A stretch of DNA of 36,992 nt, taken from the UHGV virus genome UHGV-0136957; one strand, given 5' to 3'. Below are positions 1-36,992 of this stretch, piece by piece (the first letter of the stretch is position 1; each line of letters begins with the position of its first letter). The stretch comes from a virus. A model generated the notes under the pieces. That model was not told where the DNA came from. It searched no databases and saw only the letters and a list, made by a program, of their open reading frames with translations. The translations under genes and the position numbers were made by a program.

Positions 1-116
1 TTTTACCATTATCGTTCGGGGTATTTTTACCATTATCGTTCGGGGTATTTTTACCCTTATCGTTCGGGGTATTTTTACCCTTATCGTTCGGGGTATTTTT
101 ACCCTTATCGCAAGCC
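1..116. repeat. 24-bp direct tandem array (about 4.7 units of tatttttacc[a/c]ttatcgttcgggg); the same array closes the window end; candidate iterons lying inside the rep coding region
   Basis: Read directly: units at 1-21 (partial), 22-45, 46-69, 70-93, 94-116 (degenerate). Two unit variants (ccatt / ccctt). Confidence 0.9.
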
Positions 117-469
117 TTATCAAATACCGATTTTTCCACTATTTCGCCTAGTCGCTCATAGTCGATTTTATAGTATTTTTTGTTGTCAAGCCCAACGCCT
201 TTTACCCCATCGTCTAGGATTTTTTCAGCTTTAAGCTCGCGCATAAACTTCTTAACAACCTTATCGCAAAAGCCCGTTTTTTCTTGTAGGGTTTCAAGTG
301 TAGCAAAAAAGCGTTCATTGCCCTGCTTGCGTGAAAAATCGTCTATATCAGCCAAAATGCTAATAAAAACTGCTTTTGAAACGCCAAAAGCCTTAATGCT
401 ATCTTTGCCAACGATGAGAAAGCCCGCGCCTGATTGTGATTTTCCATATTTTGTAAGTAAATTTGACAT
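1..469 (-). CDS. Replication-initiator-like protein, 5' part: N-terminal winged-helix/HTH-like domain followed by octapeptide repeats (KNTPND[K/N]G) encoded by the 24-bp array; runs off the window start
   Basis: AGGAGG at 475-480, 5-nt spacer, ATG at 467-469. My translation reads MSNLLTKYGKSQSGAGFLIVGKDSIKAFGVSKAVFISILADIDDFSRKQGNERFFATLETLQEKTGF..., and stays open to position 1. It is missing from the ORF track because it has no stop within the window. Function is inferred from domain architecture and the adjacent DnaC-like gene. Confidence 0.55.
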   Translation of the reverse strand, partial: MSNLLTKYGKSQSGAGFLIVGKDSIKAFGVSKAVFISILADIDDFSRKQGNERFFATLETLQEKTGFCDKVVKKFMRELKAEKILDDGVKGVGLDNKKYYKIDYERLGEIVEKSVFDKACDKGKNTPNDKGKNTPNDKGKNTPNDNGKNTPNDNGK

Positions 470-473
470 TTAT

Positions 474-666
474 ACCTCCTAGTCAAAGAAAAATACTTAA
501 AAAGGGGCTTGTAGCGACTGACTAGGAGGCTTTGAAAGCCCCTATTTAAGCATTTTTACACAAACGGAGACTCTTATGAACTCTTGCAGGAGGTGAGCCC
601 CCGTTTGTGTAAAAGTAAAAACTCTTTTTCAAAGCACTAAAACCCCCAACCGCAAGGGTTGGGGTA
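474..666 (-). promoter_or_regulatory. Structured rep leader with three elements: a GC hairpin (644-664); a terminator-like hairpin (503-543, followed by a U-tract) whose loop carries an anti-SD; and an 11-nt perfect complement between anti-SD (519-529) and SD (475-485)
   Basis: Read directly; see the finding on the rep leader. Confidence 0.45.
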
Positions 667-701
667 AAAGGTTAATCAATGAAAAAGGTAAAAACGAACG
701 A

Positions 702-712
702 ATTATAACATA
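702..712 (-). promoter_or_regulatory. Extended -10 promoter (TGtTATAAT) directed toward the rep leader
   Basis: Minus-sense ttatgTTATAATtcgttcg. Confidence 0.45.
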
Positions 713-756
713 AAAACCTTAAAATTTTTCTTAAAGTATGAATTTTTTTTAAATAC

Positions 757-785
757 CATCATAAAAGGGGCGCAAAGCCCCTATT
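757..785 (-). terminator. Intrinsic terminator ending the late operon (stem aggggc/gcccct, loop, then a U-tract)
   Basis: Minus-sense aggggctttgcgcccct followed by tttatgatgg; begins 4 nt after the fibre stop. Confidence 0.55.
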
Positions 786-1769
786 TTACTCTATTTTTTT
801 AAAGTAGATTTTAATGTAAGCCTTTGTATCTGCTTGAAAATCAAAGGGTGTAATCGTGTAAGTGTTATTTTTTAGAGTTTCGTTTGTGCTAAAAGCCATT
901 GTAAATTCCCAACTTGTAGAGCTTTCGCCCGTTTTTTTCGAGCCTGTGTAGGTTACGCTGGGCTTTTCGGTTGTGGGTAAGGCTAAAAACTGCGTATCCT
1001 CAATAGCTAACATATCAAGCGCGTTTGAGCTTTGGTAAATTTCGCCATTTTCACACTTAATTTCAAACACAAACTTATTTTTTACCCCGTCCGCCACTTG
1101 TATGTCCTCTGTGGGTAGGGACACGCTTAAAGAACCGCTAGCCCCGCTTGGTATTGTAAGCCTTTCTACATATTCAAGGCGTGGCGTGTTTTGAAGTATA
1201 AAATTCCGCACCCATTCAGCATTTACAAGTTCCTTGCCGCTCGCGCTAGGCAAAGGCGTGGGAATAAGCATTGTCCCGCTGTCCGTTTGCAAAATAGGCA
1301 TTTCGTTTAAATCCTTATCCCCTATAAGCACGCTTTGGGCTGTGATTGTCCCACCCAAAATTTCGCCCTTGTTAATCGTGGCGTTTTCAGCGTTTAGGTT
1401 AGTAATGCTTAAATCTGTAATTGTGGCTGTGTTTGCTGTGAGATTTTGGGCGCTTGCGGTTGTAATCTCGGCGGTTGTAATCTCGGCGGTTGTAATAATG
1501 GCGTTTTCGGCTTTAAAAAAAGCTGTATAAAGGTAGGTTTTAAAATCTAAAATTTTTTTTGAAATCATATAAAAAATTTGATTGAAAATTTGCCTTGTGA
1601 TATACAAACCGCCTTCTTTTTTGTCTATGTTATAGCGCGCGCCAAAGCCATCCGCCCAATTCACTTCCCCGTCTGTTTGCGAAGTTAAGTGTAAATTAAA
1701 TTTATCGCCGTTATTTGCAAAGGGTGATGAAAAAAGTTCATCAGGGGCTTGCGGTTCTTGTATAGCCAT
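786..1769 (-). CDS. Tail fibre protein (second, paralogous fibre) with a 15-bp tandem repeat (AEITT)x3
   Basis: Paralogous N-terminus and shared GKELVNAEWV motif; 15-bp repeat gcggttgtaatctcg at 1456-1500. Confidence 0.55.
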   Translation of the reverse strand: MAIQEPQAPDELFSSPFANNGDKFNLHLTSQTDGEVNWADGFGARYNIDKKEGGLYITRQIFNQIFYMISKKILDFKTYLYTAFFKAENAIITTAEITTAEITTASAQNLTANTATITDLSITNLNAENATINKGEILGGTITAQSVLIGDKDLNEMPILQTDSGTMLIPTPLPSASGKELVNAEWVRNFILQNTPRLEYVERLTIPSGASGSLSVSLPTEDIQVADGVKNKFVFEIKCENGEIYQSSNALDMLAIEDTQFLALPTTEKPSVTYTGSKKTGESSTSWEFTMAFSTNETLKNNTYTITPFDFQADTKAYIKIYFKKIE

Positions 1770-3193: not shown

Positions 3194-3658
3194 TTAAACT
3201 CCCATTTCTTTTTTAACGCGTTGAATTTCTGCATTCATCGCCTCGTTATACTTTGTAACGATTGAATTTAAGGCGTTTTGCCATTCGCTATTTTCGGCTT
3301 GTAAATTTTGCTCTTTCATAACTTTTTCGCGTTGTTTTTCAAAATAAGCCACACATTCGCTTTGATAGGCTTTTAAATTGAAGTTCTCATCTATACCATA
3401 GCCCAAAGCCTCAATTTTGTTTTTAGCGTCATAAACGGCGTTTATAAAGCACTGAAAGCCATTGATTAAAAGCTCCATTTTTTCGGCATCGACTTGGTCG
3501 GTGCTTAACCCTGCTTCTTGCGCCTTTTTTTTGCAGGGTTTGCAGGTTTGCATAATTTGCATAGCGTTTTGGGTATTTTTGTTAAATTCGTAAAAAATGT
3601 TGTAGAGCTCTCTGCGTTGGTATTCATCTTTTTTTGCTTTTTGAATTGAAAAAGACAT
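3194..3658 (-). CDS. Hypothetical protein upstream of the tail fibres
   Basis: Track ORF with a strong RBS. Confidence 0.45.
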   Translation of the reverse strand: MSFSIQKAKKDEYQRRELYNIFYEFNKNTQNAMQIMQTCKPCKKKAQEAGLSTDQVDAEKMELLINGFQCFINAVYDAKNKIEALGYGIDENFNLKAYQSECVAYFEKQREKVMKEQNLQAENSEWQNALNSIVTKYNEAMNAEIQRVKKEMGV

Positions 3659-18119: not shown

Positions 18120-18154
18120 AGCGTAACGCCTTTCGATTTGTAATTTCAAATCAT

Positions 18155-18165
18155 ATTATAACATA
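18155..18165 (-). promoter_or_regulatory. Late promoter, extended -10 (TGtTATAAT) upstream of the protease/scaffold gene
   Basis: Minus-sense tatgTTATAATatgatttgaaattacaaatcgAAAGGcgttacgctATG. Confidence 0.5.
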
Positions 18166-18216
18166 TAAAATCATTTTTTGATACTCTTTAAAAAACAAAG
18201 AAATTTTTAAGTTTTT

Positions 18217-18227
18217 TATGTTATAAT
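18217..18227 (+). promoter_or_regulatory. Plus-strand extended -10 promoter motif (tatgTTATAAT); a second one (tgaTATAAT) lies at 18385-18393
   Basis: Same motif as the minus-strand late promoters, but on the opposite strand and inside an intergenic region. Confidence 0.4.
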
Positions 18228-18426
18228 TACCTTGTTTTTACCTTCTATAATCTCTTTTTTAGCCCCCGCTCGGGGGCGACTTTTAAGAAGTTTTATAAAG
18301 GGGCGTTAAAACTTTTTTTTAGAAAAAGGTAAAGGATGGTTCAAAAAACGCCCCTTTATAAGATTTTACAAATTTACAAATTTATGATATAATTGCTTGT
18401 TTTCATTATATTTCCTTTTTATGTTT

Positions 18427-18459
18427 CCCCTTGCGCTTTGCGTAAGGGGTTTATTTTTT
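18427..18459 (+). terminator. Plus-strand intrinsic terminator (10-bp stem ccccttgcgc/gcgtaagggg, loop ttt, then tttatttttt)
   Basis: Read directly. On the minus strand the hairpin is followed by A-rich sequence, so it works only in the plus (antisense) direction. Confidence 0.6.
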
Positions 18460-35165: not shown

Positions 35166-35171
35166 TTTAAA

Positions 35172-35199
35172 TCCTTAAAAAATGGGGGCTTGCGCCCCC
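35172..35199 (-). terminator. Intrinsic terminator (stem gggggc/gccccc, loop ttgc, then a U-tract on the minus strand)
   Basis: Read directly: minus-sense gggggcgcaagccccc followed by attttttaagg. Confidence 0.6.
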
Positions 35200-35242
35200 A
35201 CAAATTTTTCACAAAGGAGACCAGCTGAACGCCAGCACCAAA

Positions 35243-35251
35243 ATTATAGCA
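35243..35251 (-). promoter_or_regulatory. Extended -10 promoter (TGcTATAAT) upstream of the terminator hairpin and gene 34623..35165
   Basis: Minus-sense tttgcTATAATtttgg. Confidence 0.35.
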
Positions 35252-35778: not shown

Positions 35779-36386
35779 TCACCCCTTAAATCCACACCTT
35801 TAATCTGCAAAACCACAACGCCACCGCCTTGTTTTAGGCGACTTACAGCCATCTTGCTTAAAAAATTTAGTAAATTTTTGGGGTTTTCGTTGAAAATTAA
35901 GCACAAAGGCACTAATTTATCATAAGCCGTCATCACTATTTCATTGATAATCTCCCAATCGTCCGCGCTTTGTAGCTGGTGTAGCTCATCGATAATAACG
36001 AATTTGCAGGGCGTGGGCGGTTCATCGTAAAAAATGCTCTCCTTTGCAAAAACGCCCTGCAAGGTTTTGGCGATGTTTTTAAAGTTTCCCTTAAATTCGC
36101 TTACTAACACGCTCGCGCGGTTGTAGTAAATTCGAGCCTCTCCGCCCGTCTGCTCTTTTAAACGCATAGCTAGTTCAAAAGCTAGGTAAGTCTTGCCTCT
36201 GCCCGTTTCACCACACAAAAGCAGATTTTTTTTGCCCTGCATTGCGCTTAAAGCGTTGTTTAAATCCACGAACGCACCCTTATCGTGCATAAGCACGCCA
36301 TTTTCCCTATCGTTTAAAAAACGCTCGCTTATGCCGTCTAAACGCGCAGTTTTTAAAACGCGGTCTTTATAGTTAGTTGTTTCCAT
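35775..36386 (-). CDS. AAA+ ATPase, DnaC/IstB-like helicase loader
   Basis: Walker A LLLCGETGRGKTYLA and Walker B KFVIIDELHQL. It lies immediately downstream of the initiator-like gene and overlaps it by 14 nt. Confidence 0.7.
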   Translation of the reverse strand: METTNYKDRVLKTARLDGISERFLNDRENGVLMHDKGAFVDLNNALSAMQGKKNLLLCGETGRGKTYLAFELAMRLKEQTGGEARIYYNRASVLVSEFKGNFKNIAKTLQGVFAKESIFYDEPPTPCKFVIIDELHQLQSADDWEIINEIVMTAYDKLVPLCLIFNENPKNLLNFLSKMAVSRLKQGGGVVVLQIKGVDLRGE

Positions 36387-36992
36387 CGAAATCCTCCGTA
36401 TTTGATTTTTGAAAATTCAAGGCTTTTAAATCGTCATCGCTGTAATATCTATCGTTCAAATCGGTTGTAACATACTTTTTAGCAAGGTCGCCCCTTGCCT
36501 TATTGCGCTCGCGGGCGTAGGCAGAGTTTTCAAAGTTAATTTTTCGTGGCTCGAATAAGCCCTGCCATCCGTTTGTAATACTATTTTCTATGCTGTCATA
36601 AGCCCCTATGCCTAGCTTAATGAGCTTATTGATGATTTTAACTGCGCCCGTTTCAGTTATCGGCTTTTTAATCTCATCTCTATGTTTTGCGAATTCCAAA
36701 ACATCAGCCAGCGTGAAATGGTGTATTTTGTCTTTGTGAGCGTTAAAAGCGTTTGTAATGTTTAAAGCACTATTAGCTTTTTTAGCTTTTGGCTTTTTAA
36801 CACTTAAATCGCTTTGTGTTTGTGATGAATTCTCAAAAGCAGAATTTTCACACTCAAAAAAAGTGCTTGCGCTTTGTTCTTTTGGTATTGTTTCTTTTGT
36901 TTTTGTATTCTTTTGATTTTGTAATATAGGTAGTTTAGGGGTATTTTTACCCTTATCGTTCGGGGTATTTTTACCATTATCGTTCGGGGTAT
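36373..36992 (-). CDS. Replication-initiator-like protein, 3' part (C-terminal domain), in frame with the 5' part across the window junction
   Basis: Track ORF 36373..36699 begins at an internal TTG. The same frame stays open upstream through 36992 (...KGKNTPKLPILQNQKNTKTKETIPKEQSASTFFECENS...HHFTLADVLEFAKHRDEIKK...). It joins the frame of the ORF at 1..469 exactly. Confidence 0.55.
   Translation of the reverse strand, partial: TPNDNGKNTPNDKGKNTPKLPILQNQKNTKTKETIPKEQSASTFFECENSAFENSSQTQSDLSVKKPKAKKANSALNITNAFNAHKDKIHHFTLADVLEFAKHRDEIKKPITETGAVKIINKLIKLGIGAYDSIENSITNGWQGLFEPRKINFENSAYARERNKARGDLAKKYVTTDLNDRYYSDDDLKALNFQKSNTEDFDGNN
36928..36992. repeat. Same 24-bp tandem array (about 2.5 units) as at positions 1-116; the sequence is seamless if the ends are joined
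   Basis: Read directly: ...ggggtatttttacccttatcgttcggggtatttttaccattatcgttcggggtat, continuing into ttttaccattatcg... at position 1. Confidence 0.9.

Follow-up and report, generated by a model that had tools for sequence, protein, structure and literature searches.

Hairpin loops that covary with the Shine-Dalgarno sequence in the leader of a phage replication initiator gene

Complementarity between a leader hairpin and the rep ribosome-binding site

We analyzed the untranslated leader of rep, a replication initiator gene, in the virus genome UHGV-0136957 (36,992 nucleotides (nt); this whole stretch of DNA is called the window below). The hairpin adjacent to rep carries in its apical loop an exact complement of the rep Shine-Dalgarno (SD) region, and in each related locus with a leader of this kind the rep-adjacent hairpin loop was perfectly complementary to that locus's own SD region, in five versions. 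Because these five loop/SD versions covary, the pairing is, on the evidence of sequence comparison, under selection, and it could act as a brake on rep translation. The elements that form the pairing in the window are as follows; all leader coordinates are read on the minus strand.

489..557, minus: proximal hairpin; arms 557-536/510-489 of 22 nt, 91% complementary; stem of 21 base pairs (bp)
519..529, minus: anti-SD sequence in the proximal loop, CCUCCUAGUCA; exact complement of 485-475
475..485, minus: partner of the loop, UGACUAGGAGG, which holds the rep SD AGGAGG (480-475); exact 11-nt complementarity

The loop/SD helix consists of 11 Watson-Crick pairs, or 13 bp (to 486-474) when G-U pairs are counted. 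An initial annotation of this DNA had proposed both the AGGAGG at 475-480 and an exact 11-nt anti-SD in a hairpin loop. Both were confirmed: the SD was found upstream of the rep ATG (469-467), and 529-519 matched 485-475 perfectly. The hairpin annotated at 503-543 was also present, and its extent was revised, as this part is the GC core (543-536/510-503, AGGGGCTT/AAGCCCCT) of the 22-nt-arm hairpin at 557-489, which additionally has an A/U-rich lower stem and a 25-nt apical region (535-511). The two helices interleave in a pseudoknot topology, in agreement with the annotation.

The complementarity was compared with several backgrounds. A perfect inverted repeat of at least 11 nt within 120 nt occurred in 25 of 2000 shuffles of the 322-nt region, and 11 bp against the SD region were reached by loop shuffles in 1 of 5000 cases. 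The 11-mer TGACTAGGAGG was unique in the 37-kb genome. Folding of the leader, which the annotation had put forward as a check, gave z = -7.7 versus dinucleotide shuffles. An energy-based target search with the loops over the whole genome was unspecific; when the proximal loop was compared with translation starts only, rep ranked first. The second-best site was that of a 154-amino-acid gene starting at 3658 (minus), where the 5' part of the proximal loop (AAAGCCUCCU) has a perfect 10-nt complement at the ribosome site. This match is probably a coincidence, as it was lost in L004, a related locus that shares the loop.

Covariation of loop, SD and stem among related loci

Seventeen related loci (L001-L017) were fetched, the useful ones via exact-protein look-ups. 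The perfect loop/SD match was counted in ten leader-bearing loci, which stem from uncultured phages. The five versions of the pairing were distributed as follows.

Type i: loop CCTCCTAGTCA, SD partner TGACTAGGAGG; window, L001, L002, L004, L005 and L006
Type ii: loop ACCTCCTGCAA, SD partner TTGCAGGAGGT; L003
Type iii: loop TTGCCTCCCAG, SD partner CTGGGAGGCAA; L009, L010, L014 and L015
Type iv: loop GTTACCCCTT, SD partner AAGGGGTAAC; L008
Type v: loop AACCTCCGCAAAA, SD partner TTTTGCGGAGGTT; L016

When every loop was matched with every SD region, cognate combinations formed 10-13 perfect bp, whereas non-cognate combinations formed 3-7 bp, and the observed cognate length was attained by 0-1 of 5000 loop shuffles. 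Relative to the SD core, the type-specific flank is on the 5' side in types i and ii and on the 3' side in types iii and iv, and type v has such flanks on both sides. L006, whose Rep N-terminus is 68% identical to that of the window, shares with the window a loop block of 25 nt and an SD block of 15 nt at 100% identity, and the stems in between agree at about half of their positions. The leader type was independent of the DNA-binding specificity of Rep, since two loci uncouple the two: L003 has a Rep N-terminus nearly identical to that of the window, yet a different leader type, and L016 has an unrelated Rep N-terminal domain, yet the same leader architecture. A search of IMG/VR with the loop 14-mers yielded chance matches only, without hairpin or SD context.

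The stem was examined at 16 positions from eight hairpins, anchored at the loop-closing pair. Paired cells amounted to 96.9%, and 11 of the 16 pairs changed on both sides, in a test that favours structure as the arms were drawn from each sequence's own fold. This pairing level was matched by none of 500 shuffles, and slid registers dropped to 32-67% paired. The G-U pairs of the stem are compatible with minus-sense RNA only. All seven SD-targeting proximal hairpins had a stem of 19-21 bp and an apical region of 17-29 nt. Comparison of the loci places the stem, too, under selection. The combination of a fixed loop, a variable stem with compensation, and G-U pairs on the minus strand only argues for an RNA that recognizes its target via the loop, unlike a protein operator. 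As an idea only, the stem length of 19-21 bp is that of RNase III substrates.

Distal hairpins with loops of other types

Upstream of the proximal hairpin, the window contains another hairpin.

554..614, minus: distal hairpin; arms 614-595/573-554 of 20 nt, 90% complementary

A 14-bp inverted repeat had been annotated at 553-567/602-616. The repeat exists, and its size had been underestimated: it belongs to a hairpin with a stem of 19-20 bp, including two G-U pairs, and a 21-nt loop (594-574). The first 11 nt of this loop, ACCUCCUGCAA (594-584), are the type-ii anti-SD, and its first 14 nt were identical (14/14) to the proximal loop of L003, the type-ii locus. Consistently, the distal loop can form 11 perfect bp with the rep SD of L003 versus 7 bp with the window's own SD, and no perfect target of at least 9 nt was found anywhere in the window, which is its own complete genome. 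The lower part of the distal stem is unrelated in sequence to that of L003, yet it is intact, and this intact stem around an unchanged loop argues for a function of the distal hairpin.

Similar arrangements were found elsewhere. L010, of type iii, has a distal hairpin with a type-i loop (11 bp), and one hairpin of L008 matches type v (8 bp, -21.6 kcal/mol). A further loop, type vi (GAAACYGCCUUUCAU; distal in L001, L002 and L006), had no target in any fetched locus.

Organization of the leader

The leader element lies in the gap that separates the late operon from the first early gene. Its remaining elements are listed below.

757..785, minus: terminator of the late (tail-fibre) operon; GC stem-loop 782-766 with A and T runs at the flanks
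702..710, minus: extended -10 promoter TGTTATAAT of the rep (early) transcript; motif conserved in relatives
665..700, minus: conserved 5' leader segment, beginning GUUCGUUUUUACCUUUUUCAUUGAU; nearly invariant in L001-L005
638..664, minus: T1, a terminator-like hairpin (stem-loop 664-644), CCCCAACC/GGTTGGGG; 8-bp stem with 6 GC pairs, 5-nt loop, then GUUUUAG

All elements of the minus-strand order given in the initial annotation were present at or near the coordinates assigned there. The late terminator (annotated at 757-785) directly follows the stop (786) of the tail-fibre open reading frame (ORF) 786-1769, is terminator-like on both strands, and was kept in L004, L005 and L016. The promoter, annotated at 702-712, was located at 710-702. 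The motif TGNTATAAT was over-represented in the window (13 seen, 2.0 expected), with 11 of the 13 copies on the coding strand upstream of genes. The rep promoter was invariant across L001-L005, and an equivalent TGnTAnAAT precedes the leaders of L006, L008, L014, L016 and L017. The rep transcript would start near 695, as judged from the promoter position. As far as can be read from the DNA, the promoter (710-702), the proximal hairpin (557-489) and the SD (485-475) lie on one strand without a promoter motif in between. No leader ORF with an SD was detected; only ATG-CTT-AAA-TAG and similar frames of 2-3 codons were present.

The GC hairpin annotated at 644-664 with a following U-rich run corresponds to T1, which was terminator-like by scan and was kept, with A-U to G-U changes, in L001-L005 and L016. 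A GC stem, a loop of 3-8 nt and a U-run, as in intrinsic terminators, were found together only in T1 and in the stem-loop 782-766; the proximal (557-489) and distal (614-554) hairpins, with loops of 21-25 nt, do not combine these features.

In the nested minimum-free-energy fold, a weak pairing joins the 5' segment (665-700) to the SD region. Among the translation starts of the window, no convincing target of this segment was found (best match 7 nt). The first ~35 nt of the leader (UUUUUACCUUUUUCAUUGAU) together with T1 are laid out like a short RNA (~55 nt) that has a single-stranded stretch rich in C and U.

Geometry and energetics of the pairing

The SD-side partner begins 2-7 nt past the base of the long stem, and in the window it begins after 3 nt, so that the complete hairpin cannot reach its own SD. 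From A-form geometry, a linker of 2-7 nt would be too short for a loop about 55-60 Å away, and because of this an intact hairpin and an intramolecular loop-SD helix would be mutually exclusive. Opening of the stem to its top 8 bp was calculated to cost 16-21 kcal/mol, and the loop-SD helix alone to contribute -15 to -20.5 kcal/mol with no pseudoknot penalty included. Pairing of two molecules with the hairpin intact gave about -11 to -16 kcal/mol. By this rough estimate, intermolecular pairing is energetically easier than a pseudoknot in cis. The initial annotation had described termination and sequestration as alternative folds of one transcript; this was not borne out, as a nested fold with the anti-SD:SD helix alone was 8-15 kcal/mol worse than the hairpin fold.

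Possible mechanism and alternatives

We consider the chances about even that the loop-SD pairing serves as a type-specific, dose-dependent translational brake on rep, acting between molecules or after opening or processing of the stem. The leader would be transcribed from the TGTTATAAT promoter, and its 21-bp hairpin would present the anti-SD in the apical loop. The loop would pair with the rep SD region, 30S binding would be blocked, and less of the lambda-O-like initiator would be made; the loss of rep translation may also curb the downstream early genes. On general grounds, a helix over AGGAGG, 5 nt from the start codon, would prevent 30S binding. A rep mRNA would have its SD masked by the hairpin from a second transcript of its own type, either still within the leader or as a separate RNA produced by termination or processing. 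The more leader RNA there is, and hence the more copies of the phage genome, the stronger repression would become, and it would extend to an incoming phage of matching type. Of these steps we infer repression of rep translation and, more weakly, action in trans. The version between molecules is preferred because of the geometry, the orthogonal types and the heterotypic distal loops.

Several observations weigh against this translational brake. Neither a separate promoter nor a conserved terminator bounding a free hairpin RNA was found. In two more distantly related loci, L007 and L017, the partner of the loop is a G-rich segment that lies 40-65 nt ahead of the start codon, and the SD is in a separate local hairpin. 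Three of the 17 loci (L011-L013) were without any leader, types ii, iv and v are represented by one locus each, and the relatives are all metagenomic contigs. The distal hairpin is absent from L003, L004, L005 and L016, so heterotypic loops are not a constant feature, and they could be relics of recombination or module exchange. Finally, the energies are rough: the pseudoknot penalty was crude, and the lower stem was treated as either closed or fully open; with partial opening, a pseudoknot in cis could form.

Such a leader acting in cis only is possible, though we think it somewhat unlikely. Breathing of the lower stem would let the loop pair with its own SD as an H-type pseudoknot (OFF), and the zipped hairpin would leave the SD free (ON); the balance would set a low Rep synthesis, perhaps dependent on temperature or a factor, and nothing would act in trans. 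This model is the simplest one and in essence the switch of the initial annotation. The covariation of loop-SD and stem fits it equally, the hairpin and its target always adjoin on one transcript, and the spacing from anti-SD to SD is held to 27-35 nt. The lower stem is A/U-rich with a 1x1 mismatch conserved in three variants, as expected for a part meant to open. However, the model gives no reason for five orthogonal versions or for well-kept hairpins with a loop of another type. The hairpin is also finished before the SD is transcribed, the pseudoknot was less stable than the full hairpin by 3.5-16 kcal/mol in a rough estimate, and the nested alternative fold was the worse one, as given above.

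Transcription attenuation is improbable. On this reading, the SD-proximal hairpin would be an intrinsic terminator, and alternative pairings or a countertranscript would control its use, on the model of pT181 and pIP501. The GC core is followed by UUUUU in the window and by 4-5 U in types i and iv, and T1 further upstream in the leader is a canonical terminator-like hairpin. The U-run is, however, absent or weak in types ii, iii and v (UUUCUAUG in L003 and L016, UAUUUAAG in L010), and what is conserved in the U-rich stretch is its complementarity, as the 3' arm, to the 5' arm of the stem. Intrinsic terminators have loops of 3-8 nt, far smaller than the apical regions of 17-29 nt in all relatives. 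A mutually exclusive antiterminator fold was not found. Thus, the terminator role assigned to this hairpin in the initial annotation was not upheld. The proposed likeness to countertranscript systems also failed, as no TAnAAT-type promoter was present on the plus strand of 331-640. The only candidate from the suggested search for an antisense promoter was the weak TGCTATCTT at 397-405 (9/12 match, with site counts not above those of shuffles), which was not kept in L006 despite its identical loop type.

We regard it as highly improbable that the inverted repeats are DNA-level elements, either protein operators or origin-associated cruciforms, with the 11-nt complement as a by-product. The long arms (20-22 nt) do adjoin a replication gene whose iterons are the likely origin. 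On the other hand, the loop is fixed and the arms diverge freely with compensatory changes, contrary to the pattern of a protein operator; the pairing is kept through G-U pairs, present only in minus-sense RNA; the partner is the SD of the gene in all five versions; and in L003 and L016 the leader type and the Rep DNA-binding domain do not go together.

On a tentative reading that we rate as rather doubtful, the mutually orthogonal anti-ribosome-site hairpins in the leaders of DA10-like Campylobacter phages would make up an RNA "immunity code" for the initiator, in which rep of the own type is shut off in a dose-dependent manner and extra hairpins are aimed at competing types. The distal hairpin of the window would then target type-ii phages such as L003, and that of L010 would target type-i phages such as the window. 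If true, this would be an RNA-based form of inter-phage exclusion in a group without a recognizable repressor or integrase; no integrase was found in the DA10-like phage group (PMC7291426).

Sequence alone thus reveals a natural series of five orthogonal pairs of loop and ribosome site in a phage group of which relatives (DA10, PC11 and PC22) are in culture. If the pairing does take place between molecules, it would explain restraint of replication, sensing of copy number, and exclusion of or competition with relatives in these one-strand genomes, and would supply ready-made orthogonal translational regulators.

Comparison with known RNA regulators of replication

To our knowledge, leader-encoded RNA control of a replication initiator is limited to a few classic cases, namely P1 c4, P4 CI and the IncI/IncB plasmids. 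In the whole window no Rfam family reached its gathering score. The Rfam family C4 (RF01695) was not among the matches up to E = 10 in 400-850, and no match was obtained to curated models of SD-sequestering pseudoknot riboswitches (preQ1-II, SAM-II and similar).

In P1 and P7, related phages differ jointly in the c4 loop and its target, which results in type-specific control. The present leader resembles this system: in both, regulator and target share one strand and one transcript, with the regulator encoded first; short loop sequences are directed at the ribosome-binding region of the gene that comes next; and the loop covaries with the target ribosome site among related phages, here in five versions. 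In contrast, c4 controls icd/ant rather than a replication initiator, and it is an RNase P-matured RNA with two short loop segments, whereas processing and trans action are only proposed here. The c4 antisense RNA of the immI operon was described by Citron & Schuster 1990, as cited in PMC8201110.

According to PMC4825925 (refs 45-47 there), P4 CI RNA derives from the untranslated leader of the phage's own replication operon and pairs with complementary sequences in that leader, which keeps the replication genes off; this occurs by premature transcription termination via seqA and seqC. Control of replication genes by RNA rather than by protein is thus common to P4 and the brake proposed here. 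The target in the window leader is, however, the SD with no conserved terminator after it, and no sequence or Rfam similarity to CI RNA was observed. As the regulator is on the same strand and upstream of its target, the arrangement is that of c4 and CI RNA rather than of plasmid countertranscripts.

In the IncI-alpha/IncB plasmids (repZ of ColIb-P9, repA of pMU720), a pseudoknot in the rep leader beside the SD activates translation; it requires that a leader peptide be translated, and a true countertranscript blocks it. The window leader shares with them a replication-initiator leader in which a hairpin loop pairs at the rep ribosome site in a pseudoknot topology. The sign is opposite, as the helix here covers the SD, and neither a leader ORF nor an antisense promoter was found. 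The plasmids pT181 and pIP501 likewise have RNA-level control in the leader of a rep gene, but they need an antisense promoter and a choice between terminator and antiterminator, neither of which was found here. Regulation of an mRNA by its own leader RNA has a precedent in IsrK of the Gifsy-1 prophage: a short RNA and a read-through mRNA arise from one promoter, and the short RNA acts in trans on the longer one, which is structured and translationally inactive (PMC4825925). IsrK differs in that it activates translation by structure remodelling and has no anti-SD loop and no family of specificity types. The rep leader belongs to none of these families, and in its working it is most like c4 and CI.

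Genome setting of the rep leader

The window is a circularly permuted phage genome of ~37 kb with 37.7% GC, and every long ORF is on its minus strand. The window ends share 24 identical nt that match the phase of a 24-nt tandem repeat. The gene content relevant to the leader is as follows.

1..469, minus: 5' part of rep; ATG at 469-467, start set by homologues and an in-frame TAA directly before the ATG
36373..36992, minus: 3' part of rep, which runs across the window ends (469-1, then 36992-36373), the contig being circularly permuted
Gene order from rep, minus: rep, DnaC-like loader, Ant/KilA-type protein, Erf, exonuclease, SSB, junction resolvase, methyltransferases
Gene order in the later part, minus: terminase, then structural genes, the last being two tail-fibre genes

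The rep product is a lambda-O-like replication initiator (PHROG 678 "replication initiation O-like", E = 2e-21). Iterons of 24 nt lie in frame within the gene (NDKGKNTP repeats) at 1-110 and 36938-36992, in about 6-7 copies, a number uncertain by one as the window ends fall within the array. The lambda O gene likewise has iterons inside its coding sequence. Together with the O-like homology, the iterons within the gene and the DnaC-like loader gene downstream identify rep as a lambda-O-type initiator gene, and the iterons are the likely replication origin of the phage. Their copy number and sequence differ among Rep homologues along with the N-terminal domain (alignment A1).

The large terminase was 51% identical to that of Campylobacter phage DA10, which is temperate, without an identified integrase, and has modular RepO-like proteins (PMC7291426). 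A scan of 20 early and middle window proteins revealed neither an integrase nor a repressor. Rep homologues occur only in metagenome assemblies. A search of the JGI metagenomes yielded one short contig (L005), and no relatives were obtained by protein-pattern scans of IMG/VR and GTDB genomes with a single sequence or an alignment. The leader region had no match among GenBank phages by blastn. By tblastn, Rep matched only remote Lactobacillus O-like proteins among phages and nothing among plasmids.

Other leaders and additional observations

A second unit of promoter, hairpin and gene, as indicated in the initial annotation, was present at 35166-35251 (minus) and was conserved in L001, L003, L004 and L016. 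Its order is a TGCTATAAT promoter, a small covarying hairpin, a pyrimidine stretch UCUCCUUUGUG, and a terminator hairpin GGGGGC-GCAA-GCCCCC with a U-run, and it ends at the AAGGA SD of a DUF5675-like gene. In the nested fold (z = -2.8), the SD is paired with UCUCCUUUGUG at the foot of the terminator stem.

In L007 (2390-2530) and L017 (60-200), the rep SD lies within a local nested anti-SD hairpin. The loop of the upstream hairpin and the G-rich segment form CCCGCGC/GCGCGGG in L007 and TTCCAGCCCTGC/GCGGGGCTGGAA, with one G-U, in L017. The G-rich segment could pair with the anti-SD, which may give a three-step (anti-anti-SD) cascade. Pairing of a hairpin loop with a downstream leader segment is therefore a theme wider than direct SD occlusion.

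In DA10 (L174; 32511-32880, minus), also a one-strand genome, a highly structured leader of 520 nt behind a TAATATAAT promoter precedes an antirepressor gene, which itself lies before RepO. The sole pairing near its weak SD was the 6-nt CUAGCA/UGCUAG; this leader is too AT-rich, and its relatives are too similar (94%), for a covariation test.

A 300-nt gene-free gap at 18149-18451 of the window holds the only two TGNTATAAT motifs on the noncoding strand (plus, 18219-18227 and 18385-18393). This pair is the sole hint of possible plus-strand transcription in the one-strand genome. In L006, a reverse transcriptase (RVT_1) gene adjoins a DUF4376 gene upstream of the rep leader (147-2012), which suggests a diversity-generating retroelement acting on a tail-fibre-type gene.

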